A stretch of DNA of 64,000 nt from Patescibacteria group bacterium UBA5147 (lineage in GTDB: Bacteria > Patescibacteriota > Saccharimonadia > UBA4664): the NCBI GenBank assembly GCA_002415345.1, contig DHXV01000002.1:76155-140154 (forward strand), read 5' to 3'. The notes under the pieces are model-generated. The model was given only the letters and a program-made list of their open reading frames with translations. It had not been told where the DNA came from and did no database searches. Of the stretch, positions 1 to 37,216 are shown one piece after another. The position numbers and the translations under genes are program-made. How positions within the stretch are numbered: position 1 is the first letter of the stretch; the number at the start of each line of letters is the position of its first letter.

Positions 1-1051
1 TTAGACCGGTAGTGTTACCGGACAGGTGGACGCAGATTGCGGCAAGTCCCAGCAGGAGAGCTGCACCGAGGGAAATGGCCGCCGACATCAGGCTCAGGTA
101 AGTGATGCGGTATCCATGGACGCTATCGGCGGTATCGCTCATTCCCTTGATGAAGGGCATGGAATATCCGGTGGTGGCAATTTCATTGGTGATGTTTAGG
201 GCCGCTACTCCCGGAACGTTGGTAATGAACGAGCGCAGGAGGTGGACGCTGCTGTTGGCTAGCACACTCAGTCCCAAGAGCTCTCCGCCACGCCGATTAT
301 CGATAAGGAGGCCGAACACCCGTGCTGATATCACAGCGCTCACCAGTGTAATCGAAGACAGCGCTCCAACTTGCGCGTAAACGGCTGTCCCTGACCCGGC
401 CAGAACGATAATTGCGATGAAGAGGGACCACAGCGGTCCCGACGCCCCGAAATCGACGCCGGCCGCCGCTTGGGAAATCAGGTTGCGCCGGATGTGCCGC
501 AACTGCAGGCCCTTCATTTTCAGGACTTGACGGGTAGGAACCGGTTCCGGGGTAAAAAAGAGCGGTGCGGCAGCAATAATAAAGATTCCAGCGGCCACGA
601 CCATAGTAAACTGCGGGCCGAATAAACTCGCCGCAACGCCTCCGACCAGGGGACTCAAAGTCATCCCGATCTTGGTCATGATATAGAGGAAGCCCAGCTC
701 TTTGCCTTCATGGTCCAGGGCCTTGATCTTGGAAAAGTTAACGTTTGAACTGATATCATATAGCGTAACTGAAAGTCCTTGAAAAACCCCGGCAATAATC
801 AGTGAGGCGATGCCGAGCTGTGGCAGGGCGGCCAACACCAAGAGCGAGGGCACGTATAGTAGGTTACTGATCAGCGTACCGTGTTTTGGACCGATTCGGG
901 CCACCATATGAGCAGCGGGCCACACGAACAGGGCTCGAAACAAGTAATACAGACAAAAGTAACCCAGCGTGAATTCAACGCTGTAGCCGGTCCGTATCAA
1001 ATAAATCGCGATGAAGACGGAAATCATGCCTACGGCCAAGGCCCTAAGCAT
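1..1051 (-). CDS. Polytopic membrane transporter (MFS-like), C-terminus truncated by window edge
   Basis: Continuous minus-strand reading frame runs off position 1, which is why it is missing from the ORF track. Spot translations are hydrophobic and membrane-like (e.g. LSPLVGGVAASLFGPQFTM at ~600-660; RIGPKHGTLISNLLYVPSL at ~840-900). In-frame ATG at 1051 (MLRALAVG...) and upstream stop at 1187-1189; a TTG near 1117 is an alternative start. Confidence 0.45.
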   Translation of the reverse strand, partial: MLRALAVGMISVFIAIYLIRTGYSVEFTLGYFCLYYLFRALFVWPAAHMVARIGPKHGTLISNLLYVPSLLVLAALPQLGIASLIIAGVFQGLSVTLYDISSNVNFSKIKALDHEGKELGFLYIMTKIGMTLSPLVGGVAASLFGPQFTMVVAAGIFIIAAAPLFFTPEPVPTRQVLKMKGLQLRHIRRNLISQAAAGVDFGASGPLWSLFIAIIVLAGSGTAVYAQVGALSSITLVSAVISARVFGLLIDNRRGGELLGLSVLANSSVHLLRSFITNVPGVAALNITNEIATTGYSMPFIKGMSDTADSVHGYRITYLSLMSAAISLGAALLLGLAAICVHLSGNTTGL

Positions 1052-1304
1052 TCGCGTGGCATATAACTCAGCGATTTCACTAAAATCGGCAGCTCGCCAG
1101 AAATGACGCTTCAACAATAGGCGATGGATTAATCGGGTGAGCAAAACGGACTCCGGTAGGTCAGCTGATAGTATCTGTCTATTCCATCATAACCGTAAGC
1201 TTTATACAAATGGATATTGCCACTGATTGTCCAAGATGAAACCCGCCACAAGCGGTGGAGGATTCCATCGTTCGTGGCGGGCGTTTGGCAATTACTTGCG
1301 CTGG

Positions 1305-1754
1305 CTACATGAGCTCGTCGAATCCTTCTAAGGTGTCGCGCAGCTCGTGCTCATCGACGAGCCGATGGGCCAGATGAGTCCAGTTGGTGGTGAAGAGAAC
1401 CTCGGAACTCTTGTTGGGTGTTGATCTTGCGGCCTCAACTCTGAGGCCTAATGAGGCGGATCCGATCGCTTTGATGAGCTCAGCGAAGTGTATTCGCATC
1501 ACTATGCCGCGGTTGTCTTTGCCGCCGATTCGGTTGTCGAGGACATAGTCGGCAAGACTTTGAAAGCGCGACGCCGCGTGGTAAAGCTTATTCAGCACGT
1601 TACTAGGCGTAAAAGGATGCGCCAGGTCCCAAGTCATGAGGTAATCTGATAACTCAGGGGACTCATCGACAGCGTAGCCGAATTTATGTTCGGCTCTCAT
1701 AACGTCAGCATAGGCAACCAGTGGGCTGAACGTTTGGGTCATCGGAAGGTTCAT
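1305..1754 (-). CDS. Hypothetical protein (possible DinB-like fold; motif YLMTWDLAHP)
   Basis: ORF 1305..1835. Internal Met at 1754 (MNLPMTQTF) preferred as start; the N-terminal extension lies in AT-rich sequence. Weak resemblance to the HTWDLA motif of the 9816 gene. Confidence 0.35.
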   Translation of the reverse strand: MNLPMTQTFSPLVAYADVMRAEHKFGYAVDESPELSDYLMTWDLAHPFTPSNVLNKLYHAASRFQSLADYVLDNRIGGKDNRGIVMRIHFAELIKAIGSASLGLRVEAARSTPNKSSEVLFTTNWTHLAHRLVDEHELRDTLEGFDELM

Positions 1755-1951
1755 GTCAATATCCAAATCGTTGCAGGGAATTGGGTTGCTTGTCCGGGTC
1801 GTGGGATAAATCCTGCGAATGGGGCAGTTATACAATTAAACTATATTTCTGTAAAAAAAGCAACAAAACATTCTTAACCTTTGTCTCGAATTACGTCATG
1901 GTCACGATAAAACCCGCCACTGGCGGTGACGGGTTCATCGCTGGTGGCGGG

Positions 1952-2533
1952 TTAGGGGACGTAGAGGATTGATCGGCTGGTGTTGAGATCGAGCCCGACG
2001 AACGGAGCCATCCTGGCCTCTCTGAACGATATCCAAGCGTCGTCATCCAGCGATCGCCCTACGGTGAAGCCCGGCTCTAGAGTTACCAGGCGTATCTGGC
2101 CGCAATCTTCGAGACGGACGCTGCGCGCCTTTGGGTGCGTCCCTAGCTTTGTCAGGTTGTCGTCCAGTTCCAACACGAGGAACTTGGTTGTGCGTAGTTC
2201 ACGGATAGTTTGGACAAGGCCCAATTGCAGCAACCGGTGGCGGTTCCTGCTGGAACGTTTGTAATTAAGCCAGATACAGCCTAGAACGATGAACAGAACA
2301 ACAAAGGTGAGGTTCCAGATATGATCAAAGCTGTATTTAGCAGCTAGCACGATGGAAAGCAGAATAATGACCCCGACTACCGGCATTTGCAGGGAGTCAT
2401 TGTCAGGATTGGCTCGTAGTACTTCTGCCAACCGTACGTCATAAAACGCCGGGTCGATAGTGGGCCGTTGGGAGCTTGGAGATTTGTTAGCCTCCACGCT
2501 TCCCTGATTGGATGCGTTGGTCGAGGTATTCAT
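1952..2533 (-). CDS. Membrane protein with two TM helices and PH-like C-terminal domain (hypothetical)
   Basis: ORF 193 aa; hydrophobic stretches VVGVIILLSIVLAAKY and LTFVVLFIVLGCIWL; no conserved catalytic motif seen. Confidence 0.4.
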   Translation of the reverse strand: MNTSTNASNQGSVEANKSPSSQRPTIDPAFYDVRLAEVLRANPDNDSLQMPVVGVIILLSIVLAAKYSFDHIWNLTFVVLFIVLGCIWLNYKRSSRNRHRLLQLGLVQTIRELRTTKFLVLELDDNLTKLGTHPKARSVRLEDCGQIRLVTLEPGFTVGRSLDDDAWISFREARMAPFVGLDLNTSRSILYVP

Positions 2534-2638
2534 GGTGCAATCCTTTCGCAGGAGGGTGGGGTAACGCGCGAAAAGTCTATCTGCATATTATAGCAAATCG
2601 CGAGTGCTTTGTCAAATAGCCAATTCAGCTGAGCTTAC

Positions 2639-2667
2639 TTGAAAAAGAGCTCACAATCGGGTAATAT
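2639..2667 (+). promoter_or_regulatory. Sigma70-like promoter upstream of fusA (TTGAAA-17-TAATAT)
   Basis: -35 TTGAAA at 2639-2644, 17-nt spacer, -10 TAATAT at 2662-2667; 72 nt upstream of the fusA ATG. Confidence 0.35.
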
Positions 2668-2739
2668 TAAGGTAATCAGTGCGGTTAGCGCTGTTTTCTT
2701 TTGCGCCAAGTTAAATATAAGTGGAATCAATAACGAATC

Positions 2740-4821
<2,082 letters not shown>

Positions 4822-4837
4822 GGCCTATCTCAATTAA

Positions 4838-4863
4838 AAGGCCCGCTTCGGCGGGCCCTTTTG
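4838..4863 (+). terminator. Intrinsic terminator after fusA
   Basis: GGCCCGC-ttcg-GCGGGCC followed by CTTTTG. Confidence 0.75.
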
Positions 4864-5446
4864 TTAATAGACTTATGCTTGCAAGCTCTTTGACCAGCTA
4901 TTACACTGATTTCACGTCTAATTGATACGAATTGAGTTAGAAGTTCTTTTTTAAGCCACGCCAATAAAGGCAGCTCAGCGAGGCTGCATTGGCGGTACAC
5001 CCGCGGCTCGTTCTCCGCTCTTGTTCATACCAAGAGCGTACGCGACCGCAACCGGCTCCTAGGGTGGCCGGTATCTCGCGAGGACGTGAATTAGTAGGGG
5101 GTCGGTCCCCCGAGCATTCAGACGTTATGCGAGAGCGGTGGGTGCGGTTCGGACCATAAACAGGCGCACGGCGCAGCTGTAGTGCCCCGTCTGTTGGTTC
5201 GTTCCGCATCCACCTTGAACTTGGCTGCTCGCCAGAGCTGCCGTATGACTGCCGGAACGGCTTGGTACAATTCCCTGAGCCGAGTCGTTCCGGCACAACC
5301 CGTCGGGCGGCGGCGCACACCGAGGTGTCCCCCGCCCTGCTGCAGTTCTTGGAGCTGTAACTCCGAGGATAGTCGCCGTCCGGCCCATACCTTCATTGCC
5401 CTCTGCTGTTACAGCGGAGGGTTTCCTAGTTTAAGACCCCAGCCCT

Positions 5447-5475
5447 TTACAATTCGGGCGTAATTTGCCTATAAT
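5447..5475 (+). promoter_or_regulatory. Sigma70-like promoter for tuf (TTACAA-17-TATAAT)
   Basis: -35 TTACAA 5447-5452, 17-nt spacer, consensus -10 TATAAT 5470-5475; implies ~155 nt 5' leader. Confidence 0.45.
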
Positions 5476-5638
5476 ACGTAGGTCTGAAAGCGGACGATAT
5501 TTTTTTATTGTCCAAGCAAATATAAGGTTAACTATCCGGTTCTATGGCAGATAGCTGATGCGGCGCCTCACGGCACTAGCCGCTTTAAGGCCCACGGCCA
5601 CATTATCCATCTGGAATAGAACTAAAAAAGGAGTACGA

Positions 5639-6820
5639 ATGGCAACATTTGAGCGTAACAAGCCGCATCTTAACGTCGGTACCATGGGTCACGTCGACCA
5701 CGGCAAGACCACCCTCACCGCGGCTATCACAATGGTTCTGGCTAAGCATTTCCCATCAGACATCAACAAGGCCGTAAATTACGACCAGATCGACAATGCT
5801 CCTGAAGAGCGCTTGCGCGGTATTACCATCGCTACTTCCCACCAGGAGTACGAGAGCGAGAAGCGTCACTACGCCCACGTCGACATGCCAGGTCACGCCG
5901 ACTACGTCAAGAACATGATTACCGGTGCCGCTCAGATTGACGGTGCTATCCTCGTAGTTTCCGCCGCCGACGGCCCGATGCCTCAGACCCGCGAGCACAT
6001 TCTGCTAGCCAAGCAGGTTGGTGTTCCTTCGGTCCTCGTCTTCATGAACAAGATGGACATGGCCGACCCGGAGCTCGCCGAGCTAGTTGAGATGGAAATC
6101 CGCGAACTGCTCGAAAAGAACGGTTTCGACGAGAATGCCCCGATTATCAGCGGTTCCGCTCTTAAGGCCGTCGAAGGCGACGCCGATGCTGAGGCCAAGA
6201 TCCTCGAGCTGGTCAAGGCCATGGATGACTACTTCACCGACCCCGTCCGCGAAACCTCCAAGCCGTTCCTCATGCCGATCGAAGACGTCTTCTCAATCAA
6301 GGGCCGTGGAACCGTTGCTACCGGCCGTATCGAGCAGGGTGTCGTCAAAGTTAACGACTCGGTTGAAATCGTGGGTATCCGCCCAACCAAGACCACGACC
6401 GTAACCGGCGTCGAGATGTTCAAGAAATTGCTTCCTGACGCTCAGGCCGGTGACAACGTCGGAGCCTTGCTCCGCGGAATTGAGCGAACTGATATCGAGC
6501 GCGGCCAGGTTCTGGCTAAGCCCGGTTCGGTTACCCCGCACACCGACTTTGACGCTGAAGTCTACGTCCTGAGCAAAGACGAGGGCGGCCGCCACACCCC
6601 ATTCTTCAAGGGCTACAAGCCTCAGTTTTACATCCGCACCACTGACGTCACGGGTGCCGTAACTCTGCCGGAAGGTGTCGAGATGGTTATGCCAGGCGAC
6701 ACAATCAAGATGAAAGTTGAGCTTATTGCTCCAATCGCCATGGAAGAAGGCCTCCGCTTCGCTATCCGCGAAGGCGGCCGTACCGTTGGCGCTGGTGTCG
6801 TAACCAAAATCAACAAGTAG
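5639..6820 (+). CDS. tuf: Elongation factor Tu
   Basis: 394 aa from the ATG at 5639 (RBS AAAAAGGAG 7 nt upstream); [21 protein letters not shown] motifs. The ORF-track 5' extension (5558) is not supported. Confidence 0.97.
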
Positions 6821-6836
6821 TTTGACCACTACCGAT

Positions 6837-6866
6837 AAAAGAGCGGGCTTCGGCCCGCTCTTTTGT
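6837..6866 (+). terminator. Intrinsic terminator after tuf
   Basis: GAGCGGGC-ttcg-GCCCGCTC followed by TTTTGTT. Confidence 0.8.
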
Positions 6867-6891
6867 TGAGAGATCCAGCCGATAAGCATTC

Positions 6892-6920
6892 TTGTCAATT
6901 ATGACTATTAAGGTTATAAT
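6892..6920 (+). promoter_or_regulatory. Sigma70-like promoter for rpsJ (TTGTCA-17-TATAAT)
   Basis: -35 TTGTCA 6892-6897, 17-nt spacer, -10 TATAAT 6915-6920; ~88 nt leader to rpsJ. Confidence 0.45.
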
Positions 6921-7007
6921 CGCACCATTACCATTTAATTTGTACCGAGAACTCATCCGGTTAAACCCCGCGAAGAGGTTACGGTATCGCACCAGGAGAC
7001 CCAGTAC

Positions 7008-7340
7008 ATGGCAACAGCCGCCGATAAGACCCCCGAGAAGCAACGAATTCGTATTCGCCTTAAGGCTTATGACTCAAAAGTCATCGACCAGAGCGCCAAG
7101 CAGATCATCGACACCGCAATCCGCACGGGAGCCAAAGTAGCCGGCCCCATTCCGCTGCCGACCGAGCGCAACTCAATGACCGTGCTCCGCTCGCCCCACG
7201 TCTACAAGGACGCCCGTGAACAGTTCGAAATGCGCACCCACAAGCGCCTCATCGACATCACCGAGCCAACCCCCAAGACCATCGACGCCCTGATGAACCT
7301 CAACCTGCCGGCAGGTGTGGACATCGAAATTAAGATGTAA
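7008..7340 (+). CDS. rpsJ: 30S ribosomal protein S10
   Basis: 110 aa; [11 protein letters not shown]...[25 protein letters not shown] is typical S10. Confidence 0.95.
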
Positions 7341-7347
7341 TCTTACT

Positions 7348-7376
7348 TAAAAGCTCCGCTTAGGCGGAGCTTTTAA
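7348..7376 (+). terminator. Intrinsic terminator immediately after rpsJ
   Basis: AGCTCCGC-ttag-GCGGAGCT followed by TTT. It separates rpsJ from the downstream genes. Confidence 0.7.
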
Positions 7377-7391
7377 GTAAACTGGGAATAA

Positions 7392-8177
7392 ATGAAACAC
7401 CTTTCAAAGGTAACACGATTCACATATAGGCATCCGACTACTAGCGTTGTGGCAATCCTTATCGTATTTAGTGCGCTTTTCTTATACCTAGGTTTTCACA
7501 CGGCAGTCCATGCAAATCCAGCTGACCTCTATATCAACTTAGCGGCAGGTGGTATATTTTCCATCTTCGCATTACTATTTATTGAACTTTTTAGGGATAG
7601 ACAGCGCAGCTTTAGCGGCAAGGAGGGGCGTTTTGCCGCTACATCGGATGCTAATAGAATGAGCAGAATGCTTGTTGAGTGGGCAGCGGGAAACTTCGGC
7701 GAGTCAGTGCTCACTTACAAGATCGATCCAAATAATGAAGATATTTCTCGGAATCAAAATGCGATAGTGATGTCACAAAAAATGATGGCTCTATCAATGA
7801 TTAATGCTTTACGAGAATTTAGTCCAGGCAAATGGCAAATTCTACGTGATAACCTTATTGGGCTGAAAGGGCAGGTTAATGAATTCGCCGAGTACTATAA
7901 GGAGATGACCCCATTAGATGTTTATGGCAAATATCTGGAGGTAAGGCGATTGCACATGGGTATGGTTACGAGCTTTGCCCCGAACCCATTTAGCGATCTG
8001 CTCACGAAACCTGAGGATGAATGGGCTCATAACAAGTATGGTGTTGTTTATATGCGTCAACTTCGTGAAAACCAGTTAACTCAAATGGCTGAGATGTACG
8101 AGAAGTACATTTCGTCGCTAGTCAGCTTTCATCTGGCTGTAGTCTGCTGGTTTGACTTGGAGGATGGCCGCAAATAG
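7392..8177 (+). CDS. Hypothetical membrane-anchored protein (AT-rich gene)
   Basis: 261 aa; two N-terminal TM helices; local GC is clearly lower than the flanks; no recognisable domain. Confidence 0.4.
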   Translation: MKHLSKVTRFTYRHPTTSVVAILIVFSALFLYLGFHTAVHANPADLYINLAAGGIFSIFALLFIELFRDRQRSFSGKEGRFAATSDANRMSRMLVEWAAGNFGESVLTYKIDPNNEDISRNQNAIVMSQKMMALSMINALREFSPGKWQILRDNLIGLKGQVNEFAEYYKEMTPLDVYGKYLEVRRLHMGMVTSFAPNPFSDLLTKPEDEWAHNKYGVVYMRQLRENQLTQMAEMYEKYISSLVSFHLAVVCWFDLEDGRK

Positions 8178-8229
8178 CAAATCTAACTTTAGATTTGGTT
8201 CACGGGCATAGTGCCTGTTAATCTTCTGA

Positions 8230-8817
8230 TTAAATAAGAGGTGGCTCTGTGATTGTGTCTGTGATAGTCGCGTGTAAGTGTTGGGCGGAGGCCTGATATT
8301 TGCTTGGAGCGATTACAATGAGACGCTGCGCAAGAGGCAGATACAGCGCCCTGGTTTCTTCGTTTTTACGGATTTGCTTGGCTGGGCTGCATGAACCTAG
8401 CGTTCGCTGGTTATGCAGCCGGTCCGACAGCTTAATGATAAGCGTCTGCCAATCAGCCTTTTCTAATCCTGCGTAATAGTTGACCCCCGACTGCTTGGTA
8501 AGCAGGTCAAGACGGTCGGCGACTTCATCGCCGAAATTCACGCGTACCCGGTGGTCACTTAAGAGGAAGGTGTCTTCGCGCACGTCGTGGAGCAGGGCGG
8601 TAATGATGATTTTCTCATCGTAGACGTGCAACTCATCGATGAGGATCATCGCGACGGCCTTGGGGTGCTCAAAGTACCTCTCACCGCTGGAACGGGTTTG
8701 GCCGCGGTGGGCGTATTTGCTGAAGATGTAGGCTGCTTCGACAGCTTCCAACTCCAGGTGTGACATTGTAGGCGCGAGTCGGGCTAAAAATTCTGGTCGT
8801 CCGATTTTGTGGGTCAT
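8230..8817 (-). CDS. HD-domain (p)ppGpp hydrolase, SpoT/Mesh1-like small alarmone hydrolase
   Basis: Start ATG at 8817 with AAGGAG RBS. HD motif ALLHDVREDT and EHP... typical of the RelA/SpoT hydrolase domain. ~195 aa with no synthetase domain. Confidence 0.65.
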   Translation of the reverse strand: MTHKIGRPEFLARLAPTMSHLELEAVEAAYIFSKYAHRGQTRSSGERYFEHPKAVAMILIDELHVYDEKIIITALLHDVREDTFLLSDHRVRVNFGDEVADRLDLLTKQSGVNYYAGLEKADWQTLIIKLSDRLHNQRTLGSCSPAKQIRKNEETRALYLPLAQRLIVIAPSKYQASAQHLHATITDTITEPPLI

Positions 8818-8950
8818 GATATTCTCCTTGCCTTCGTTTCTCCGGAATCGAAAAAGAATAAAAAAGGCGGCTTGGAACAAGGAACGATTCCTTGTAGTAG
8901 CCGCAATAGACGCCTGATGGCCGCTGTCCTAATACAATGTGATTATAACA

Positions 8951-9358
8951 TTATGTGGCGTTACTAGCAATCGGCGGTGTCGGGTTTTCCTGTAAGAGTT
9001 CGAAATGAATCGCCAAGACCCCGTATTCAGCTTCTTCGGTAGCTGGGTATATGCCGCGATAAATTGTTATTCCGTCTGCAATGGATTTGGTACGCGGTAA
9101 CACTTGTTCCAGCCCGGTTAGCATAAGCATTCTTTCGAATGTCGGGAATGAGTCAACGAAAGTGATTTTCAATAGCGCACGGTTGGGAATTTCGCGAACC
9201 GTACCGTCTGGCAGCGTGACGTCCTCGCGTAAGTATATTAGATCACCTGGTTGGTACTGGCTGAACTTACCGCGATTGAGCCGACCTTCGACGGTCTTGG
9301 CTCCGGCTAGGATGTCGTTGATATATTCGGTCGAACGGCCAGCTTCAAAGATTTGCAT
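8951..9358 (-). CDS. ASCH-domain protein
   Basis: 135 aa; MQIFEAG...KTVEGRLNRGKF...GDLIYL resembles ASCH/PUA-like beta-barrel proteins. Confidence 0.55.
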   Translation of the reverse strand: MQIFEAGRSTEYINDILAGAKTVEGRLNRGKFSQYQPGDLIYLREDVTLPDGTVREIPNRALLKITFVDSFPTFERMLMLTGLEQVLPRTKSIADGITIYRGIYPATEEAEYGVLAIHFELLQENPTPPIASNAT

Positions 9359-9390
9359 TAGATTAGTATAACAAATATACGCAATGAAAG

Positions 9391-9418
9391 GGCCCTGTCG
9401 CTGTTAAGCGACAGGGCC
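9391..9418 (-). terminator. Perfect 11-bp hairpin (GGCCCTGTCGC/GCGACAGGGCC); likely terminator of the 9431..9646 gene
   Basis: Hairpin lies 12 nt downstream of the minus-strand stop, followed on the minus strand by CCTTTCATT. Confidence 0.5.
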
Positions 9419-9430
9419 GGGGTGGATGGG

Positions 9431-9646
9431 TTATTTACTCCCCTTGATGAAGAAGATTGTGCGGGCCTGTTCGCCGGGTTCGGGGTGGTGGCAGGTTTCG
9501 TGCGCGGTCGCAAAGTTCTGAAGGCAAACCTGGCGGTTGATCTCGAAGTTGTAGACATAGCCTGTGCCTGCCGTGAACAGGGAAAAAAATGCAAAGAGCG
9601 CGACCCAGAAGGATCGCGAGGGTCGTATCATCGCTTTCCGGGACAT
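9431..9646 (-). CDS. Small secreted/membrane protein (hypothetical)
   Basis: 71 aa; N-terminal hydrophobic signal-like segment WVALFAFFSLFTAG; followed by the hairpin terminator. Confidence 0.3.
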   Translation of the reverse strand: MSRKAMIRPSRSFWVALFAFFSLFTAGTGYVYNFEINRQVCLQNFATAHETCHHPEPGEQARTIFFIKGSK

Positions 9647-9815
9647 GAGAGCTCCAATGTCGAAGGTTCGGGACTGAAGATATTATATAACGTTTATGAT
9701 TGGAAGTCATTCTTTGTGGTCAGTACTTGCTGAATAGATTTGATGGATTGCATATGGCAAAAGAGGGCTATTTGGAGTAGAAATGACGCATAATCCCTTA
9801 AGCGAGGAATAAGCA

Positions 9816-10391
9816 ATGACTGAACTCGAAGCTTTCAAACGGGCGGACGCCTGTTTTCTGGCCGTATTAGGTAAGGTTGGCGAGCACCAATGGAAGGATC
9901 CTACACCGAACCCAGGGTGGAGTGTGACCGACTTGGCGGGGCATATTATGGAGGGAATCGTCTGGGTGGGGCACGTACTGTTAGGAGCGAGTATTGCGGC
10001 GGCCGGTGACAAATTCAGCGGCGACCTGTTGGGTGACGATCCTAAGGCTGCTGCGGAGCGGGCCTGCCGTGAGGCGGAAGCGGCCATAGATAAGACGGGC
10101 GACCTGGAAGCCATAGTGCATCTAAGCTATGGAGACGTCCCCGCCCGGACCTATTTGCGGCAGCAGATAATCGATATCACGATTCATACTTGGGACCTGG
10201 CGCGGGGCATTGGCGTCGACGAAAAATTAGACTCGGACCTGGTTGCCATAGTTTATGACTGGTTTGCGCCCGAAGCGGAGGGCTGGCGCGAAGCAGGCCT
10301 GCTGAAGCCAGCCGTTCCGGTTCCCGCCGATGCCGACCTCCAAACCAGGCTGCTCGCTTTATCAGGCCGCCAAGCCGTAATGGCGGATTAG
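9816..10391 (+). CDS. DinB-like protein, TIGR03086 / mycothiol-maleylpyruvate-isomerase N-terminal domain family
   Basis: 191 aa; motifs GWSVTDLAGHI and IHTWDLARG are typical of this family. Confidence 0.55.
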   Translation: MTELEAFKRADACFLAVLGKVGEHQWKDPTPNPGWSVTDLAGHIMEGIVWVGHVLLGASIAAAGDKFSGDLLGDDPKAAAERACREAEAAIDKTGDLEAIVHLSYGDVPARTYLRQQIIDITIHTWDLARGIGVDEKLDSDLVAIVYDWFAPEAEGWREAGLLKPAVPVPADADLQTRLLALSGRQAVMAD

Positions 10392-10494
10392 GTATATTAT
10401 GGGAGGACAGTATAGGAAACCCCGCCATGCATGAATCAAAGACCCTTATCCTCGCCTGCCGCCAGCCCGACGGAACATATGATGGTAAAAAAGT

Positions 10495-11058
10495 ATGACG
10501 ACAGTCTATTTCGATTATGCTTGCGAATATACCTACCGTCTCCAACGACTTTTGGATATGGCCGACGTTCAGGCGGACTGGCAACCTTTTTCTCTGGCGC
10601 AGGCCAAACGGGGGGAAACCGAAACTCCGGTTTGGAATCTTGCGGGTAGCGACCTTCCTGTGAGTGTGTTAGCCCTGGCCGGTCATGAATTTGTCAAAGC
10701 CCAGGGCGGTCCGGGTATCAAAGCTTACCGCCAGGAAGTCTCGCATTTGTTCCATGAAGTCGGCCACGAGCCTGACGCCGGCCAAATCTGGCATTTGGTT
10801 GAGAAGTTTACGGGTTACGCTAAAGCCGACCTCGATCTTGAGGGAGCGCTGGAGCGGGTTAAAACCAGTCATGAGTTAGCCGAAGCCAAACGGGTGTTCG
10901 ATACCCCGACGCTGTTTATCGACGAGAGCGACAAGCCGTACTTTATCCGGCTGGAGGCGATTCCCGAAACGCCACAGGCCGCTAAAGCCCTCTGGAAGTC
11001 GCTGCCAAAATCAGCCCATCATTTTCCGCGACCGATAACTATTGAGGCGGTGGACTAG
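10495..11058 (+). CDS. DsbA-like thioredoxin-fold protein (Rv2466c-like)
   Basis: 187 aa; N-terminal VYFDYACEYTYRL resembles the DSBA-like thioredoxin domain with a CxxT/CxxC-variant active site. Confidence 0.5.
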   Translation: MTTVYFDYACEYTYRLQRLLDMADVQADWQPFSLAQAKRGETETPVWNLAGSDLPVSVLALAGHEFVKAQGGPGIKAYRQEVSHLFHEVGHEPDAGQIWHLVEKFTGYAKADLDLEGALERVKTSHELAEAKRVFDTPTLFIDESDKPYFIRLEAIPETPQAAKALWKSLPKSAHHFPRPITIEAVD

Positions 11059-11154
11059 CAGGGGATTCAAGTTAATAGTCCGCAACATTTGGAGCTCTGC
11101 CCAATTAGTCTGTCGGCTATCTTATTTATGATGGTGTGGTAAGAGGAGAAGACG

Positions 11155-11427
11155 ATGCAATACACCGATACCAATGAGTATCTGCGGAGAATACTTATGC
11201 TTGAAGAGGTAGTACAACACCATCCGAAAATAATGGAGGCCGTGACCGATGGTGATAGAGTAATGTTGCAGCGGTATTTCCTCGGAGCAACTACGGCCGT
11301 TGATGTTACCGAGTATCGGCGTCAGGTAATAAAATCCGACCCCAAAATTGAAATTCAGGCAAACAAGGCCTACGAACGTTTTATGGCCGAAGCCGGCATG
11401 TCGGAGACTTTACTGCCTGTTCGATAG
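11155..11427 (+). CDS. Hypothetical protein
   Basis: 90-aa ORF in a compact intergenic slot; no domain recognised. Confidence 0.3.
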   Translation: MQYTDTNEYLRRILMLEEVVQHHPKIMEAVTDGDRVMLQRYFLGATTAVDVTEYRRQVIKSDPKIEIQANKAYERFMAEAGMSETLLPVR

Positions 11428-11520
11428 TATTGACACGATAACGAACGCCACCCGAAAGGGTGGCGTTTTCGTTTTGACGCAGTAAACCCCCGGAATCGAG
11501 GACCTACCGTGAGCCGGGGC

Positions 11521-11949
11521 TCAAGTTGATCTGGTTTTCCGGGGGCTAATTGGGATGTTCGGCACTAGGACGAACAGCGGACTGAGTTGGCCGGTGAAGC
11601 AGACGGTTGATGGGAATTCAACCTTCCGTTCAATAACTCGGCGTTGCTTCGGAGTAAATAGCATGCGATCGCGTTCGCCACGGTGCGCCTTTAAGAAAAA
11701 GGTTTTCCCTGACAAAAAGAGCACAGCTAATCCAAAGGACCGTTGAAGTACCAGACTTCCAGCGGTTGGGCTGGATAACTGCCGGATGACCGACAATACG
11801 TCTGCATCGTCGATCCCGACAAGACTTACCTCAGTTTGTTGTTTAAGGTAGGCGACCGCAAGTGCGTCAAGAATTCTGGATTTATCAAGCTCGGCCTGAG
11901 CGGCGAATTCTTGCTCGTAGGTCCGGTTGGGCCGGGTAATAGTTATCAC
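11521..11949 (-). CDS. Hypothetical protein
   Basis: 142-aa ORF; no domain recognised. Confidence 0.3.
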   Translation of the reverse strand: MITITRPNRTYEQEFAAQAELDKSRILDALAVAYLKQQTEVSLVGIDDADVLSVIRQLSSPTAGSLVLQRSFGLAVLFLSGKTFFLKAHRGERDRMLFTPKQRRVIERKVEFPSTVCFTGQLSPLFVLVPNIPISPRKTRST

Positions 11950-12113
11950 CGAATCTCATTTCATTTTCGGAGGACAGGGGCTACCGAGATTGCAGTTCGC
12001 AATCTGAGCATGGTTACAAATGTTAGCACGGGAGGGTATCTCTGTCAATAGTGACAATTAATTCCAACAGATATAAAACGAACACTTACCGAACGCCATG
12101 ATATACTATTACT

Positions 12114-13328
12114 ATGAATCTATTCGGTGAAATGAATCGGCCGTTGGCCGACAGGGTGAGGCCTCAAACTATCGACGAAGTGATCGGGCAAGGTCAAGTG
12201 GTCGGCGAGGGCCAGTTCCTGCGGACCATCGTGACTAACGGCATTCCGACGTCGCTGATTCTCTGGGGGCCGCCGGGAACCGGCAAGACGACGCTGGCCC
12301 GCATCATCGCGCGAGGCGGGGACTACGCTTTTGAAGAAATCTCCGCCGTTACCAGCGGTTTGCCGGACGTCAAGAAGGTGATCGAACGGTCCAAGGAACG
12401 CCGTCGGGCGGGCCAGACGACGCTGTTGTTCGTCGATGAAATCCATCGGTTCAACAAGGCCCAGCAAGACGCGTTCTTGCCACATATGGAAAACGGCACC
12501 ATCGTGCTGATTGGGGCGACAACCGAGAACCCGTCGTTTGAGGTCATTGGGCCGCTGTTGTCCCGCAGCCGGGTGGTGGTGCTGGAAAAATTAACAGTTC
12601 CACAGCTGGTGGCCATTTTGGACCGCGGGCTAAAGGAATTGGGCGGTCGGGCCATGAAGCCGGACGCCAAACAAATGCTGGCCGAGCTGGCCGGCGGCGA
12701 CGCACGGGTAGCTTTGGGCGGATTGGAAGCCGCCGCTACTCTGACATCGGGTGAAATAACCCTCGAACACGTCAAGCAGGCCATGCAGAAAACCGCACTG
12801 CGCTATGACAAGTCCGGCGAATACCACTACAACCTGATATCGGCTTACATCAAAAGCCTGCGCGGCTCGGCGGTGGACGCCGCTCTTCTGTATCTGGCGC
12901 GCATGCTCGAAAGCGGGGAAGACGCCAAGTTCATTGCCCGGCGGTTGGTGATTTTCGCCTCCGAGGATATCGGTACGGCCGACAACACCATGCTGACGCT
13001 GGCCGTCAGTACGTTCCAAGCCATCGAGCGCATCGGTATGCCCGAAGGCCGCATTATCCTGTCCCAGGCGACAGTGGCTCTGGCATTGGCGCCCAAGAAC
13101 CGCGACGCCTATGACGCCATCGGCCGGGCTATCGGCGCGGTCCAGAGCAATCCGGGCATGGATGTGCCGGCTCACCTCCGTAATGCTCCCACCAAACTCA
13201 TGAAAGAGCTGGAATACGGCAAGGGCTACCAGTGGGAACCGGGTTTTGAGCATCCCGACGGTTTCATGCCGACTCAAGTCCGAGGTCAAAAGTTTTATCG
13301 GCCGCACGACAAGAAATCGTCCAAATAA
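12114..13328 (+). CDS. rarA: Replication-associated recombination protein A (MgsA/RarA, AAA+ ATPase)
   Basis: 404 aa; Walker A GPPGTGKTT, Walker B LFVDEIHRFNK, and the C-terminal MgsA helical domain (KSLRGS...ALLYLARMLESGED). Confidence 0.9.
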   Translation: MNLFGEMNRPLADRVRPQTIDEVIGQGQVVGEGQFLRTIVTNGIPTSLILWGPPGTGKTTLARIIARGGDYAFEEISAVTSGLPDVKKVIERSKERRRAGQTTLLFVDEIHRFNKAQQDAFLPHMENGTIVLIGATTENPSFEVIGPLLSRSRVVVLEKLTVPQLVAILDRGLKELGGRAMKPDAKQMLAELAGGDARVALGGLEAAATLTSGEITLEHVKQAMQKTALRYDKSGEYHYNLISAYIKSLRGSAVDAALLYLARMLESGEDAKFIARRLVIFASEDIGTADNTMLTLAVSTFQAIERIGMPEGRIILSQATVALALAPKNRDAYDAIGRAIGAVQSNPGMDVPAHLRNAPTKLMKELEYGKGYQWEPGFEHPDGFMPTQVRGQKFYRPHDKKSSK

Positions 13329-13353
13329 AATAGCCCTCATAAACAGAGGGCTG

Positions 13354-14001
13354 TTAGGGGTTCCATTCGCGGATGAATTCGCCGCATGCGCGGCAGTATA
13401 GGTCTGCTTCCCGCAGTACCTCATTGAAGTTGCGCCATTCTACGCTTCCCTCACCGGCGCCGCAGTGAGGGCAACCGAACAGGGTATCTCTCTGAAATTG
13501 CGGGGTCGTACCAAGGCGTGCGGGCACTGCCTGATTGATAGCTGCGCCAATAAGTCCGTAAATCTCCCAGTCGTAAACTGCGGTCACCGATTTGACCTTG
13601 TCGTGTTCGCTCATAACATAAATGTAATGAGGGAGTCCGCTCCATTCACCGAAATGAACGACGATTTCATTAATACGGCTTGGGGCTGCCGCTGGACTGT
13701 CGACCAGGATCCGCTCCATAATAAGTCCGATCCCGGTATGGGCGGGATGCTCATTATGCCGCCACGCCCGGATGATCTGCGGGATGCATTCGGCAGTTAG
13801 CGCGGTAAAGGTGTTTTTTCCGCAATGTGAGCAGAACAGTGCCGCTTGACCGAGTCCCAGCATCCCGGTAAACGGAAGCATGAAGTCGTCCGGAGGTGCC
13901 ACACACCATTTGCAGGGTTTCAGCGGTATAGAATCTTTGACGAGTCGTTCGACGGCGATGGCGTCTTGGAGCTGGAAATCCAGGGTGATTAATCCGGTCA
14001 T
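13354..14001 (-). CDS. Cys-rich protein with multiple Zn-ribbon-like CxxC pairs (hypothetical)
   Basis: 215 aa; CKWC, CSHCG, CPHCG, CRACG motifs. Confidence 0.4.
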   Translation of the reverse strand: MTGLITLDFQLQDAIAVERLVKDSIPLKPCKWCVAPPDDFMLPFTGMLGLGQAALFCSHCGKNTFTALTAECIPQIIRAWRHNEHPAHTGIGLIMERILVDSPAAAPSRINEIVVHFGEWSGLPHYIYVMSEHDKVKSVTAVYDWEIYGLIGAAINQAVPARLGTTPQFQRDTLFGCPHCGAGEGSVEWRNFNEVLREADLYCRACGEFIREWNP

Positions 14002-14108
14002 TATGGCCTCCGGTTGATGTTAAAGGACTAATTCCACCCTAGGCGGAATTGTCACGGACTGGTAGCAAATTATTTTGTACTTCACGGATGTGGAGTATCT
14101 TAATACAC

Positions 14109-14768
14109 ATGCACTGGATTGCCCGTCACATCCTGAAGCGGCTGGCTTTTGCCGACCATTTGACCTACTCGGAGCTGAAACCGGATCAGGTTGAAGGCAA
14201 TCTGTTCCAATACTATGCCCGGAGCTTAGAGAAGGAAGGCCTGATAACCCGCGGTGTGGACGGATATGCTCTGACTTCCGCCGGTAAGGCAGTTGTGGCC
14301 GATTTGAGCCAAACCCAGCTCATGCGGCGCCACGAGCAGCCTCAGCCTATGGTGGCGGCTTTTGTCAGGAGAGGAACACAGATTCTGCTGTTCGAATGGA
14401 AGCGCCATCCTTACCGAGGGATGGTCAGTCTGTCCATGGGTCGACACGGAATCGAGATGGATTTGGTTACGGCAGCCGCCGATCAGTTGTTCTGGAAAGC
14501 CGGGCTGGCAGGTACGGCTGAATATATCGGTCAAATTGAATTAATTTCCCACGACGGCGATAATCGCGAGGCGCACACCCTCATTAATGTAGTTGAGTTT
14601 AGCGATGTAGCGGAAGTAGCAGCAACTGATGGTTTGACCGGACAATATTTCTGGTCGGAAATGGACCGGACTAAGACCGATACCTTGGTACCGGGATTCA
14701 GTGAAATTTTGGATTGGTGCAACGATGATGCACGACCGGCGTATTTATTGATCAAAACAACCCGATAG
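14109..14768 (+). CDS. Hypothetical protein, possible winged-helix N-terminus
   Basis: ORF 14049..14768; internal Mets at 14088 and 14109 are plausible starts; LKPDQVEGNLFQYYARSLEKEGLITRG is wHTH-like. Confidence 0.35.
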   Translation: MHWIARHILKRLAFADHLTYSELKPDQVEGNLFQYYARSLEKEGLITRGVDGYALTSAGKAVVADLSQTQLMRRHEQPQPMVAAFVRRGTQILLFEWKRHPYRGMVSLSMGRHGIEMDLVTAAADQLFWKAGLAGTAEYIGQIELISHDGDNREAHTLINVVEFSDVAEVAATDGLTGQYFWSEMDRTKTDTLVPGFSEILDWCNDDARPAYLLIKTTR

Positions 14769-14863
14769 CCCGTTATAGCGTAATTTATTTGGAACATACA
14801 CCAGTACCAACGCAACGCCGTTCGTCATAGGCTAGGAGTAAGCACTATAACGAGGGGAACAGC

Positions 14864-15412
14864 ATGGATTTAACTGACATCAAAATTGCTATTATCGCGA
14901 CGGATTTATTTGAAGAGACCGAGCTGATTGAACCCAAAAAAGCCTTCGAGGAGGCCGGCGCCGAAGTAACGGTCATAGCTCCGGACGAAGGCGATATCCA
15001 GGGGGTGAACCATCACGAAGATGGCCGCAGCGTGGCAGTAGATCAGACGTTGGACGGTGCTGATCCTGCCGATTACGACGCCGTATTTCTGCCCGGGGGC
15101 GTCATGAACGCCGACGCACTTCGGGTAAATCAAAAAGCCCAGGCCTTCGTTCAGGCCATGGACGCCGATGACAAGCCGCTGGGAGTAATTTGCCACGGCT
15201 CATGGCTGCTCGTCGATGCCGGTCTGGTTGACGGCCGCAGTATGACAAGCTCTCACGCCATGGCTGAAGATTTAAAGAATGCCGGGGCCGAGTGGGCGGA
15301 TAAAGAGGTGGTGGTAGATGGCAATTGGGTTTCTTCCCGCAAGCCGGATGACCTGCCGGCCTTTATCCGGGCCTTCATGGAACTTACTGAAGACTCAGCC
15401 GAAGAAGAGTAG
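14864..15412 (+). CDS. DJ-1/PfpI family protein (class I glutamine amidotransferase-like)
   Basis: 182 aa; nucleophile elbow VICHGSWLL, acidic C-terminus. Confidence 0.8.
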   Translation: MDLTDIKIAIIATDLFEETELIEPKKAFEEAGAEVTVIAPDEGDIQGVNHHEDGRSVAVDQTLDGADPADYDAVFLPGGVMNADALRVNQKAQAFVQAMDADDKPLGVICHGSWLLVDAGLVDGRSMTSSHAMAEDLKNAGAEWADKEVVVDGNWVSSRKPDDLPAFIRAFMELTEDSAEEE

Positions 15413-15446
15413 TGTCAAATCATTATTCTTATGCTTTAATATAGCT

Positions 15447-15707
15447 ATGAAGAAATCAACCGGCACCAAACACATCGCCAAAGAAACCGATAGCGTTTAT
15501 TTCTTAAAAATCCTGGTGTTTTTTGTGCTGGGTTCGATTTGGGTCAAATACCACGGCGTCGTAGTTTTCCCCGCCGGTTTGGTTTTAGGGGTAGCCCTGA
15601 CGGCTCACGACCACTTTGCAATTGACCGTAAGGTGGAATACGCGGTCCTTATTGTCTCAGCGCTGCTTACACTCGCCACGGGCTACGTAGTTTTCGTCGT
15701 CGTTTAA
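15447..15707 (+). CDS. Small membrane protein (2-3 TM, hypothetical)
   Basis: Start at the internal ATG 15447 (MKKSTG...) of ORF 15318..15707; hydrophobic. Confidence 0.4.
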   Translation: MKKSTGTKHIAKETDSVYFLKILVFFVLGSIWVKYHGVVVFPAGLVLGVALTAHDHFAIDRKVEYAVLIVSALLTLATGYVVFVVV

Positions 15708-15710
15708 GGC

Positions 15711-15920
15711 TTAGAAGTCTTCGAGGATCGTTTTTAACACGTAGGCCATTGTTGCAGCCATGGCTACGAATTGTAATATATCGATGATGCCACGACCGAC
15801 CGTCATATTTATCGGTAGAAACCCGTAGGCGAAGCTCAGGACAATGACCACGCTCATCAGCAGGCTAAAATTGCTGATGAAGGATTTAGTTCGCGCGCGA
15901 GCCGTAAAGCGGTTATACAT
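15711..15920 (-). CDS. Small membrane protein (2 TM, hypothetical)
   Basis: 69 aa; hydrophobic; convergent with the previous gene. Confidence 0.4.
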   Translation of the reverse strand: MYNRFTARARTKSFISNFSLLMSVVIVLSFAYGFLPINMTVGRGIIDILQFVAMAATMAYVLKTILEDF

Positions 15921-16004
15921 CAGCTCATTCTAGCATATATCACCGCTTATGTCAAGATTTGGGTTCTCTAGGTGACAGTTGCGCCTTTTACCCTGGCCTA
16001 GGTG

Positions 16005-16034
16005 TTGACAGAGCTCAGCCAGATAAGCTATAGT
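16005..16034 (+). promoter_or_regulatory. Sigma70-like promoter for the rplC operon (TTGACA-18-TATAGT)
   Basis: Consensus -35 TTGACA 16005-16010, -10 TATAGT 16029-16034; ~125 nt leader before rplC. Confidence 0.45.
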
Positions 16035-16159
16035 CACATGGTATTTGTTCGCCGCAACTGATGCGGTGCAATCAATCTAGGTAGCAAGCAGGTCTGATAG
16101 ATACCACTTGTAACCTGGAATTTACGTTTGTCGCAGATGTCGCATAACAAGGATCAATC

Positions 16160-26289: not shown

Positions 26290-26406
26290 GTGAAAGTACG
26301 CGCAAGCGTTAAGAAAATGTGCGAATCTTGCAAAGTCGTGCGTCGCGAAGGCGTCGTGCGGGTTATCTGCTCGGCTAAGCCTCGTCATAAACAGAGGCAG
26401 GGTTAA
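26290..26406 (+). CDS. rpmJ: 50S ribosomal protein L36
   Basis: GTG start; 38 aa [38 protein letters not shown] with a C4-type zinc site. Below the ORF-track size cutoff. Confidence 0.9.
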
Positions 26407-37067: not shown

Positions 37068-37216
37068 CATCGGCGATAAGCATACCGGGAGGGGATGACC
37101 TTCCTGGTTAAATAGGTGTCAGCCCTGGCCAACTCACGAGTAATACTCGTGCAGATTGAGCCAGGACTGACACCATTAGCATTATGTTATTGTTGTAATA
37201 AATAAGGACTACTTCA

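Follow-up and report, generated by a model that had tools for sequence, protein, structure and literature searches.

OLE, GOLLD, ROOL, HEARO/omega RNA, and raiA are large structured bacterial ncRNAs, some of them given a function only lately. They fold with multi-helix junctions and pseudoknots and carry unpaired nucleotides that are highly conserved. In the thrU-tyrU-glyT-thrT-tufB operon of E. coli, stable RNA genes are co-transcribed upstream of tufB, and the product of tuf is more abundant in the cell than any other protein. The genomes of CPR/Patescibacteria are small (~1 Mb) and densely packed. To our knowledge, almost nothing has been described of their regulatory RNAs, and we know of no large ncRNA in them beyond the universal ones. 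In the 64-kb stretch of DNA analysed here, referred to as the window, fusA and tuf are separated by a long spacer. On balance, this spacer probably holds an independent gene on the + strand, encoding a lineage-specific, fast-evolving structured ncRNA of ~520 nt that would act via its helices.

The spacer extends from the end of fusA (4821) to the start of tuf (5639) and measures 817 nt, longer than the ~700 nt given in an earlier reading made from the sequence only. The GC-rich character described in that reading is borne out, with a GC content of 0.62-0.64 over 5001-5400 compared to 0.47-0.48 in the flanks, and the only ORFs present, on both strands and 56-127 aa long, do indeed overlap one another. 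Both boundaries were also recovered by scans. The upstream boundary is the intrinsic terminator of fusA (4836-4863, +), AAAAGGCCCGC-ttcg-GCGGGCCCTTTTG, with a stem at 4840-4857 and a T run; it is kept with compensatory changes across 5 relatives (consensus fold, pairs 27-52). The downstream boundary is the tuf promoter (5446-5475, +), TTTACA-18-TATAAT, scoring 11/12, and the same 11/12 site is found in the related loci L083, L085, L087, and L088; the identity of the block is 86-94%. Two paired 11-mers and a GGGGG-tcggt-CCCCC motif quoted in the earlier reading are present, but each lies 1 base upstream of where it had been placed: GGTGGGTGCGG at 5137-5147, its partner CCGCATCCACC at 5204-5214, and the motif at 5097-5111. 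The tuf 5'UTR (5482-5638, +), a neighbour outside the ncRNA, is itself conserved and structured: it has a 5' hairpin with a T run (5482-5505), and further on 5539-5564 pairs with 5597-5622 in a long helix.

The consensus fold of the spacer contains local hairpins only, without multi-helix junctions or long-range helices. Eight independent hairpins of 20-83 nt, H1 to H8, span 4959-5384 on the + strand with linkers of 0-10 nt and combine long, near-perfect stems with short loops. H1 (4959-4994) pairs CGCCAAU with AUUGGCG and has an internal loop; its helices 1-2 are 91-97% paired, with 4 pairs changed on both sides. H2 (5003-5049) comprises consensus helices 3-5, and H3 (5051-5072) corresponds to helix 6, in which both sides changed in 6 of 9 pairs. 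H4 (5074-5134) contains helices 7-8, including the GGGGG-ucggu-CCCCC element at 5097-5111. H5 (5137-5214) is a long rod; the earlier reading had already seen the pairing that forms its basal stem, GGUGGGUGCGG/CCGCAUCCACC. The 31 pairs of its helices 9-11 include 12 that are invariant and 6 that changed on both sides; its tip varies in length among relatives (78-119 nt) and is lengthened by a nested hairpin in L090. Both sides changed in 5 of the 8 pairs of H6 (5223-5242, helix 12). H7 (5250-5295, helix 13) is a 17-bp stem that is missing as a unit in L092, and the H8 domain (5302-5384, helices 14-17) consists of a 13-bp GC-rich basal stem around two small hairpins.

Predicted signals for transcription flank the hairpins. 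The candidate promoter (4877-4907, +) has a -35 hexamer TTGCAA at 4879-4884, a 17-nt spacer, and a -10 hexamer TACACT at 4902-4907, and the -35 sits within a perfect 10-bp palindrome, GCTTGCAAGC, at 4877-4886. Both hexamers occur in all 5 aligned genus-level genomes (the -10 being TACAAT in L083), and the block is 76-88% identical compared to 51-61% at the 4-fold sites of fusA. The site scores 8/12 in the window, which is under the scan threshold, and 9/12 in L083; analogous + strand promoters were found by the scan in L085, L087, and L088. At the other end lies the predicted intrinsic terminator of the RNA (5399-5432, +), CCCTCTGCTG-tta-CAGCGGAGGG followed by TTTCCTAGTTT. It corresponds to consensus helix 18, which is 94% paired with 2 pairs changed on both sides, and it ends 14 nt before the -35 of tuf. 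The T run of the window itself is weak and those of relatives are better, the terminator scan recovering the site in L083, L085, L087, and L088. By consensus matches, the array carries its own putative promoter and intrinsic terminator, conserved in orthologues. The predicted primary transcript (4914-5432, +) is ~519 nt, its 5' end being placed ~7 nt past the -10 and its 3' end at the T run. It begins with an AU-rich segment (4914-4958, +) that is mostly unpaired in the consensus fold and poorly conserved, with indels and 26-82% identity to relatives. Within this region, an anti-Shine-Dalgarno role for the CU-rich tract at 4937-4953, which seemed complementary to the ribosome-binding site of tuf, was considered and rejected, as its duplexes with the start regions of tuf and fusA were no more stable than those of shuffles in any of 5 genomes (p = 0.24-0.85).

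Similar arrays are found throughout the sampled clade. All 11 other distinct genomes sampled (EF-G 85-98% identical) have a fusA-tuf spacer of 737-1622 nt with a GC-rich hairpin array, folding on the + strand with z of -6.5 to -13.6. Seven more distant genomes (EF-G 85-90%) retain the same order of promoter, GC-rich hairpin array, terminator, and tuf promoter. No homology between the hairpins of the window and those of these seven could be detected by blastn or by nhmmer with a single sequence or a 5-sequence profile, and covariance models of H8 and H5, run with filters off, matched only generic hairpins beyond the genus, on both strands, at E of ~0.004-1. Beyond the genus level, the putative family is thus defined by position and architecture. 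Array length ranges from ~450 to 900 nt, with turnover of hairpins between sublineages. Among the EF-G matches listed, which are mostly from other phyla and at best 71% identical, the fusA-tuf gap of ordinary bacteria is 40-260 nt; among those listed from other CPR classes, the gaps are AT-rich with a + strand ORF and hold no hairpin arrays. A metagenome scan with a conserved 19-mer of the tuf leader returned 28 loci, all unrelated coding sequence with no tuf or fusA near. The gene appears to be confined to a single clade of Saccharimonadia (TM7, CPR). In 12 of 12 genomes the array immediately precedes the tuf promoter and is co-oriented with it, even though the neighbours of fusA and tuf vary.

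This fixed position suggests a possible functional coupling to the expression of EF-Tu, and it is also an argument for regarding the array as a cis-acting leader or insulator of tuf, read from a distal promoter (P1) and partly terminated or processed before the proximal one, that would control or protect tuf transcription instead of acting in trans. The weak T run of the terminator in the window and the conserved, structured tuf leader downstream are consistent with this explanation, and the arrangement would have parallels in the stable-RNA genes that precede tufB in E. coli or in the structured leader regions of rRNA operons. Against it, most relatives have a strong hairpin and T-run terminator before an 11/12 tuf promoter, indicating that tuf does not need an upstream promoter. 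Moreover, the 5' segment of the RNA has no significant complementarity to the ribosome-binding region of tuf, and the array has no tRNA-like units. A cis-acting role of this kind is considered unlikely, though far from negligible.

The pattern of substitution argues for selection on pairing. Covariation, a check named in the sequence-only reading, was evaluated in 5 alignable sequences (the window and four genus-level relatives), the structure being predicted on that same alignment: both sides changed in 46 of 148 pairs, compared to 19.5±3.2 in shuffles, none of 500 of which reached 46. Paired cells amounted to 88.5%, falling to 37-43% when partners were slid, and the covariation score was 0.323 compared to 0.09 when slid. 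The spacers of L085 and L086 are 98.6% identical and have too few differences to inform on pairing. Identity is 67-75% in paired columns and 43-53% in unpaired columns, and the 4-fold sites of fusA, 51-61% identical across these genomes, were used as the neutral yardstick. As judged by this yardstick, the stems are constrained and the loops drift at about the neutral rate. Neither this pattern of constrained stems and free loops nor the array's own predicted promoter and terminator formed part of the earlier reading.

These data also bear on a selfish or neutral build-up of small palindromic insertions, similar to REP/BIME or MITE elements, at a tolerant intergenic site. Evolution of the array is modular, as would be expected from such insertions: the H7 unit is present or absent, the tip of H5 is extended in L090, and the array varies from ~450 to 900 nt. 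In the orthologous stems, on the other hand, compensatory change preserves the pairing, and their conservation exceeds that of 4-fold sites. Neither the 64-kb window nor the ~8-9 kb surrounding this locus in 10 relatives yielded a second copy of any hairpin, and a search of phage and plasmid sequences for the array gave no match. Families of direct repeats and tandem repeats both numbered 0, leaving no array of the CRISPR, TIGR, or type III antitoxin kind. On the sequence covered, an origin by palindromic insertion is held to be improbable.

The array folds far more strongly than expected. On the + strand, 4940-5450 reaches -253 kcal/mol (z = -10.4), an energy that 0 of 100 dinucleotide shuffles match, and the - strand of the spacer reaches -223.7 kcal/mol (z = -3.9, dinucleotide shuffles). 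When all 300-nt segments of the 64 kb, both strands included, are ranked by folding-energy excess over GC expectation, 5001-5300 (+) comes first (-4.4 sd). The consensus fold of the 5 orthologues has -154.7 kcal/mol on the + strand compared to -116.5 on the - strand, in 4 of 5 sequences the + strand folds more stably by 14-29 kcal/mol, and G-U outnumber A-C cells at predicted pairs by 74 to 23. The hairpin array is clearly strand-asymmetric, with the + strand favoured. A cruciform requires equal pairing on both strands, and the bias thus stands against an element acting as DNA, in which the RNA would have no role and the palindromes would serve as cruciforms or as protein-binding sites, for instance to absorb negative supercoils. 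The conserved promoter and terminator predicted for the array also count against such an element. The long near-perfect stems with short loops, the folding of both strands well beyond chance (for the - strand, z between -3.9 and -9), and the site upstream of the tuf promoter, a very strong one, would be compatible with it; as a whole it is judged very improbable.

Searches for known RNA families agree with the failure of the earlier reading to match the region to RNase P, tmRNA, SRP, or 6S consensus, and likewise the Rfam check proposed there matched no family at E<=10. The gathering-level scan of the whole window with Rfam 15 returned 4 tRNAs and Alpha_RBS only, all outside the spacer. With the threshold relaxed to E<=10, the ranges 4780-5680 and 4900-5440 gave only terminator look-alikes and models of miRNA or retroviral hairpins, at 9-21 bits compared to cut-offs of 37-99. 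In the 64-kb window ARAGORN located no tmRNA and only four tRNAs, all within 33.7-34.6 kb, and the CR-I/P4 motif of RNase P (GAGGAAAGUCCGGGC) had 0 matches in 64 kb with up to 3 mismatches. A divergent universal RNA (RNase P RNA, 6S, or tmRNA) missed by the thresholds of Rfam has a precedent, since some CPR RNase P RNAs score under the noise cut-off of Rfam and have to be refolded by hand (Lui et al. 2021, PMC8172020), and a size of 400-500 nt is compatible with it. Nevertheless, none of RNase P, 6S, tmRNA, and SRP was matched even down to ~9 bits, and for RNase P in particular the consensus fold lacks long-range helices such as P1, P2, P4, or P5 that would close a multi-domain fold, and the unpaired positions, which in RNase P form the catalytic core, are unconstrained in the array. 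This identity is regarded as highly improbable. A search of the literature, which did not cover one possibly relevant 2026 preprint, yielded no description of the hairpin array.

The sequence-only reading had left the choice between an ncRNA and a decayed gene. Covariation, the + strand asymmetry, and the putative promoter and terminator favour the first, and the second did not survive. A remnant of a degraded protein-coding gene, such as rpsL, rpsG, or an inserted gene, is effectively refuted in spite of the 56-127 aa ORFs on both strands and of the 165-aa ORF and 48-aa product predicted by gene callers in the spacers of L090 and L085, since the minus-strand ORFs of 127 aa (window) and 165 aa (L090) have no similarity (E = 3.2) where EF-G is 98% identical, Pfam matched no ORF of the spacer, its concatenated six-frame translation gave nothing at E<=1e-3 against 5.8 billion proteins, and its indels are not multiples of three while substitutions track base-pairing.

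In the preferred reading, that of an independent structured ncRNA, a sigma-70-type promoter at 4879-4907 would drive the transcript, which would open with ~45 unstructured AU-rich bases. Over 4959-5384 the transcript would then fold co-transcriptionally into the GC-rich hairpins H1-H8, eight in a row and all very stable, and transcription would stop at the RNA's own intrinsic terminator (5399-5432), before the -35 of tuf. Both the transcription as drawn and the action as RNA we infer from the sequence. The constrained stems, the neutral loops, the modular gain and loss of hairpins, and the lack of multi-helix junctions suggest that the helices themselves are the functional units. The most likely role of the RNA, proposed with low confidence, would be that of a platform or decoy for a helix-binding protein, one that is stable, rich in dsRNA, and resistant to Rho and RNase; as candidate partners, with equally low confidence, RNase III or some other protein associated with dsRNA or the ribosome is put forward. 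The array does not seem to resemble a ribozyme, a riboswitch, or a base-pairing antisense regulator, although this too is said with low confidence. A functional RNA that acts in trans would not usually have neutral loops and lack junctions, which counts against this reading.

A wider proposal is possible but doubtful: that a new class of bacterial long ncRNA, "hairpin-array RNA", exists at fusA-[RNA]-tuf across the Saccharimonadia clade, with fast turnover erasing homology within the family. If this is true, selection would act on double-strandedness and not on sequence or tertiary fold, which implies a helix-recognising partner (RNase III, a dsRNA-binding protein, or a defence or host-interaction factor) and could mean a role tied to EF-Tu production in reduced epibiotic genomes. 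At least half a kilobase of non-coding, GC-rich, selected helices beside tuf in every sampled member of the clade is unlikely to be idle. If transcribed, it would add a large ncRNA to CPR/Patescibacteria and an unusual evolutionary mode, consisting of constrained stems, neutral loops, and hairpin turnover. Such an RNA cannot be tracked by Rfam or covariance-model searches, so similar elements have probably been overlooked elsewhere. The conserved tuf leader together with the hairpin array offers a concrete target for metatranscriptome mining.

Compared to described systems, the array combines features of several. Like 6S RNA, it is mostly double-stranded and stable, with fast sequence divergence and pairing kept; 6S RNA, however, is a single rod of ~180 nt with a large central bubble, a form not seen here, whereas the array has eight separate, independent hairpins over ~430 nt and no Rfam 6S signal. 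With the divergent CPR RNase P RNAs (PMC8172020) it shares a CPR lineage, a structured length of ~400-500 nt, and escape from Rfam thresholds, and it differs from them in having no P4/CR-I motif, sub-threshold match, or long-range helices. REP/BIME elements likewise form clusters of stable GC-rich intergenic hairpins after a highly expressed gene, with gain and loss by units. Unlike them, the hairpins of the array are all different, have no copies elsewhere in the available sequence, appear to have their own conserved promoter, and show orthologous conservation with compensatory changes. OLE, GOLLD, ROOL, HEARO/omega RNA, and raiA are, as the array is, several hundred nt long, non-coding, supported by covariation, and restricted to lineages, the promoter and terminator of the array itself being predicted ones. 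In contrast to these RNAs, the array is a linear string of hairpins with neutral loops and linkers, has no covariance-model match, and loses detectable homology within one bacterial family. In the thrU-tyrU-glyT-thrT-tufB operon of E. coli the units are tRNAs, which those of the array are not, and in the array a terminator and a near-consensus tuf promoter intervene; in both, structured non-coding RNA lies directly upstream of tuf and in the same orientation.

The fusA gene (2740-4821, + strand) and the tuf gene (5639-6820, + strand) of the window, which comes from a metagenome-assembled genome of Saccharimonadia (Candidatus Saccharibacteria/TM7, CPR), are separated by a spacer of 817 nt. Among the matches listed with EF-G as the query, this gap is 40-260 nt in most bacteria. 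The closest named homologues of EF-G are annotated as Saccharimonadia or Saccharibacteria, and identical copies of the tuf product are carried by JGI contig Ga0120161_1000002 and GCA_002429365.1. The classical form of the str and S10 operons is fragmented in positions 1-17000 (L001, the window's own locus): no rpsL or rpsG lies upstream of fusA in the window, their place being taken by two minus-strand ORFs without a Pfam match, and about 9 kb separate S10 (7008-7340) from L3 (16160-16816), a stretch occupied by the unrelated genes HD_4, ASCH, MgsA-type AAA, and DJ-1.

The sequence-only reading had described this spacer as GC-rich and structured, and the observation is confirmed, far beyond chance. 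GC content is 0.62-0.64 over 5001-5400 versus 0.47-0.48 on either side, and the + strand of 4940-5450 folds at -253 kcal/mol (z = -10.4), which none of 100 shuffles equalled. When folding energy was regressed on GC across every 300-nt window of the 64 kb, both strands included, the top outlier was 5001-5300 (+) at -4.4 sd, followed by 5101-5400 (+). The spacer holds an extremely stable, + strand-biased hairpin chain. All of the motifs quoted in that reading are present, although their positions had been off by one base: GGTGGGTGCGG at 5137-5147 pairs with CCGCATCCACC at 5204-5214, and GGGGG-tcggt-CCCCC is located at 5097-5111. Elsewhere, the next most over-folded 300-nt windows are 36901-37300 (+), 61801-62200 (+), and 53001-53300 (-), at about -2.8 to -3.1 sd from the GC expectation.

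Related loci were taken at 85-98% EF-G identity, and a long fusA-tuf spacer was found in every distinct genome with a contig covering the region. Its length is 862 nt in L090, 875 nt in L083, 783 nt in L092, and 841 nt in L091, the genus-level relatives; in more distant loci of the clade it is 1028 nt (L085/L086), 1012 nt (L087), 737 nt (L088), 1622 nt (L121), 1335 nt (L122), and 920 nt (L123). Each related spacer contains a GC-rich block (0.52-0.64) folding far better than shuffles, with + strand z-scores of -6.5 to -13.6 that are stronger than those of the - strand in 10 of 11 cases. In L121, two small called ORFs of 72 and 61 aa occupy the 5' half of the spacer (5245-5767) and precede the GC-rich hairpin array; additional sequence can thus be gained at this locus. 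The stretch directly upstream of fusA varies among L090, L091, L092, L088, L121, and L122; small HTH_17 (excisionase-like) genes often occur there on the opposite strand, and a DDE transposase is present in L122, which together suggest an insertion hot spot adjoining fusA. Among the matches listed, enlarged gaps are also seen in other CPR classes (Falkowbacteria, Gracilibacteria, Moranbacteria, and others). Those of L006, L007, L013, and L060 (other CPR classes and a MAG labelled Gammaproteobacteria) differ in kind, since they are AT-rich (470-1080 nt) with one + strand open frame each of 113-171 aa, possibly a small inserted gene.

The window and its four genus-level relatives form the alignable set (alignment A3), in which EF-G is 95-98% identical. 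Four-fold degenerate sites of fusA are only 51-61% identical; neutral sites are therefore near saturation, and any conservation is informative. On this alignment, RNAalifold gave eight hairpin domains and a terminator, whose window coordinates, taken from the single-sequence fold, are H1 4959-4994, H2 5003-5049, H3 5051-5072, H4 5074-5134, H5 5137-5214, H6 5223-5242, H7 5250-5295, H8 5302-5384, and terminator 5399-5432. Standard pairs occupy 88.5% of cells, compared to 37-43% once the 3' partners have been displaced by 1-3 columns, and the covariation score is 0.323 versus 0.09 after such displacement. The covariation check proposed in the sequence-only reading showed both-side changes in 46 of 148 pairs; column shuffles gave 19.5±3.2, and 0/500 attained 46. 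At least one such pair is present in 16 of 18 helices. Identity to the window is 67-75% in paired columns and 43-53% in unpaired ones; the latter abound in indels and are hence at or below the neutral level. The array has been under selection for pairing, with near-neutral loops.

Beyond the genus-level group, alignment is confined to the tuf promoter and leader. Neither the five-sequence nhmmer profile nor the covariance models of H8 (R1) and H5 (R2) gave a significant or position-specific match in L085, L087, L088, or L121-L123; the best model matches were generic long hairpins on both strands (E ~0.004-1, by a rough calibration). Even L087 and L121/L122, with 94-95% EF-G identity, have in common only one stem and a stretch near the promoter. 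It can be seen that the arrangement and character of the element, rather than individual hairpins, are conserved across the clade.

Sequences resembling a promoter and a terminator bound the element and are conserved. The scan recovered two outer features named in the sequence-only reading, the fusA terminator (stem 4840-4857) and the tuf promoter (TTTACA-18-TATAAT, 5446-5475, 11/12). A block 3' of the fusA terminator is 76-88% identical, well above the neutral level, and contains a candidate + strand promoter, TTGCAA (4879-4884) and TACACT (4902-4907) with a 17-nt spacer. Its match of 8/12 is under the scan threshold; in L083, where the second hexamer is TACAAT, the site scores 9/12. A perfect 10-bp palindrome, GCTTGCAAGC (4877-4886), overlaps its -35. 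The palindrome is intact in four of five close relatives (L091 carries ACTTGCAATC) and could be a regulator binding site. The 3' end of the array is a hairpin and T run showing covariation (helix 18). In L085, L087, and L088, the same order of fusA terminator, + promoter, hairpin array, terminator, and tuf promoter (TTTACA-18-TATAAT) is found, with sigma-70-like + strand array promoters TTGACG-17-TAAAGT in L085, TTGACA-17-TATGAT or TTGACG-17-TAAGAT in L087, and TTGACT-17-TAATAT in L088. The promoter block, the covarying terminator, and this signal order support a transcription unit of its own, about 519 nt long, with predicted ends at roughly 4914-5432. We infer an independently transcribed ncRNA, and an independent structured ncRNA gene is the reading towards which we lean.

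The array might instead be a distal leader or insulator acting in cis on tuf, which we regard as unlikely. The fusA-[RNA]-tuf order is kept together among relatives although the outer flanking genes vary; 14 nt lie between the array terminator and the tuf -35 that follows it. The 5'UTR of tuf (5476-5638, +) is itself conserved in 11 of 11 related genomes of Saccharimonadia, and to a much greater degree than the array that precedes it. Its 5'-terminal hairpin, GTCTGAAAGCGGAC (5482-5495), precedes a T run, and 5539-5564 pairs with 5597-5622 in a long helix that covaries (UA<->CG in 5/10 sequences, UA<->AU in 4/11). No Rfam family matches this 5'UTR, a candidate for a new leader or attenuator of tuf. 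An exact 19-mer of this leader matched 28 metagenome contigs (L093-L120), none of them Saccharimonadia and the window's own JGI contig not among them; about a dozen share a conserved coding context in unrelated bacteria.

An accumulation of palindromic elements is improbable. The evolution of the array is modular: H7 is absent as a unit from L092, and the H5 tip varies from 78 to 119 nt among the aligned genomes. Repeat or mobile DNA is argued against by the lack of direct or tandem repeats, of a second copy of any part within the 64-kb window or the flanks of ten related loci, and of similarity to phage or plasmid records.

A DNA-level cruciform, which would need equal pairing on the two strands, is quite improbable. 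The - strand of 4940-5450 also folds (-223.7 kcal/mol, z = -3.9). Consensus energy is -154.7 kcal/mol on the + strand versus -116.5 on the - strand, and 4 of 5 single sequences favour the + strand by 14-29 kcal/mol. Predicted pairs include 74 G-U versus 23 A-C cells, a count somewhat biased because the structure was predicted on the + strand.

A divergent universal RNA is very improbable. At gathering thresholds, Rfam 15 found four tRNAs and Alpha_RBS in the whole window, all outside the spacer. Alpha_RBS, the alpha-operon ribosome-binding-site leader, is a family described from Gammaproteobacteria; its match at 26346-26439 (+) scores 38.4 against a gathering score of 38 and is either borderline or an interesting distant member in this CPR genome. 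At E<=10, 4780-5680 and 4900-5440 gave only 9-21 bit matches, namely terminator-like models at the fusA terminator and generic hairpins (miRNA precursors, a retroviral packaging signal). ARAGORN found neither tRNA nor tmRNA in the spacer. RNase P RNA was checked directly, since those of CPR may score under Rfam cut-offs (Lui et al. 2021, PMC8172020). No sign of it was found: the CR-I/P4 motif does not occur anywhere in the window at up to 3 mismatches, no sub-threshold match occurs in the spacer (E<=10), and the consensus fold has no long-range helices. The earlier failure to match RNase P or tmRNA by eye is thereby borne out.

A decayed gene is hardly credible: the spacer ORFs (56-127 aa) are overlapping, artefact-like frames without Pfam matches, the window and L090, whose EF-G proteins are 98% identical, show no relationship between their longest minus-strand ORFs (E = 3.2), and the concatenated six-frame translation found no protein at E<=1e-3 among 5.8 billion. 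The spacer shows no coding signal, and no relation to known RNA families or, within the stretches searched, to repeats. Of the proposal "candidate ncRNA or decayed gene", the decayed-gene half is not supported, and the ncRNA half is supported by covariation, strand bias, and promoter and terminator.

The element in the spacer is real and non-coding, its structure is under selection, and it is a candidate for a novel ncRNA gene of a hairpin-array type. Under the ncRNA-gene reading, the most economical mechanism would be that of a stable, dsRNA-rich RNA functioning through its helices. Such an RNA may serve a helix-binding protein as binding platform or decoy, and its heavy structure could shield the untranslated transcript from Rho and exonucleases; our confidence in this scaffold or decoy mechanism is low. 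Ribozymes, riboswitches, and RNase P carry conserved nucleotides in junctions and loops, and the array, in which stems are kept and loops drift, shows the reverse pattern. This pattern also argues against an antisense regulator with single-stranded seeds; the one candidate seed compared with the tuf ribosome-binding site was no better than shuffles. REP/BIME arrays are alike in appearance but, over the 64 kb and the ten related flanks searched, unlike in copy number. The E. coli tRNA-tufB operon is alike in placement, but the array has no tRNAs and is set apart from tuf by a terminator and a promoter. Large structured bacterial ncRNAs would be closest in working, although the array belongs to no named family by any membership test, and it is classed as a candidate structured ncRNA that is specific to its lineage and evolves in an unusual manner.
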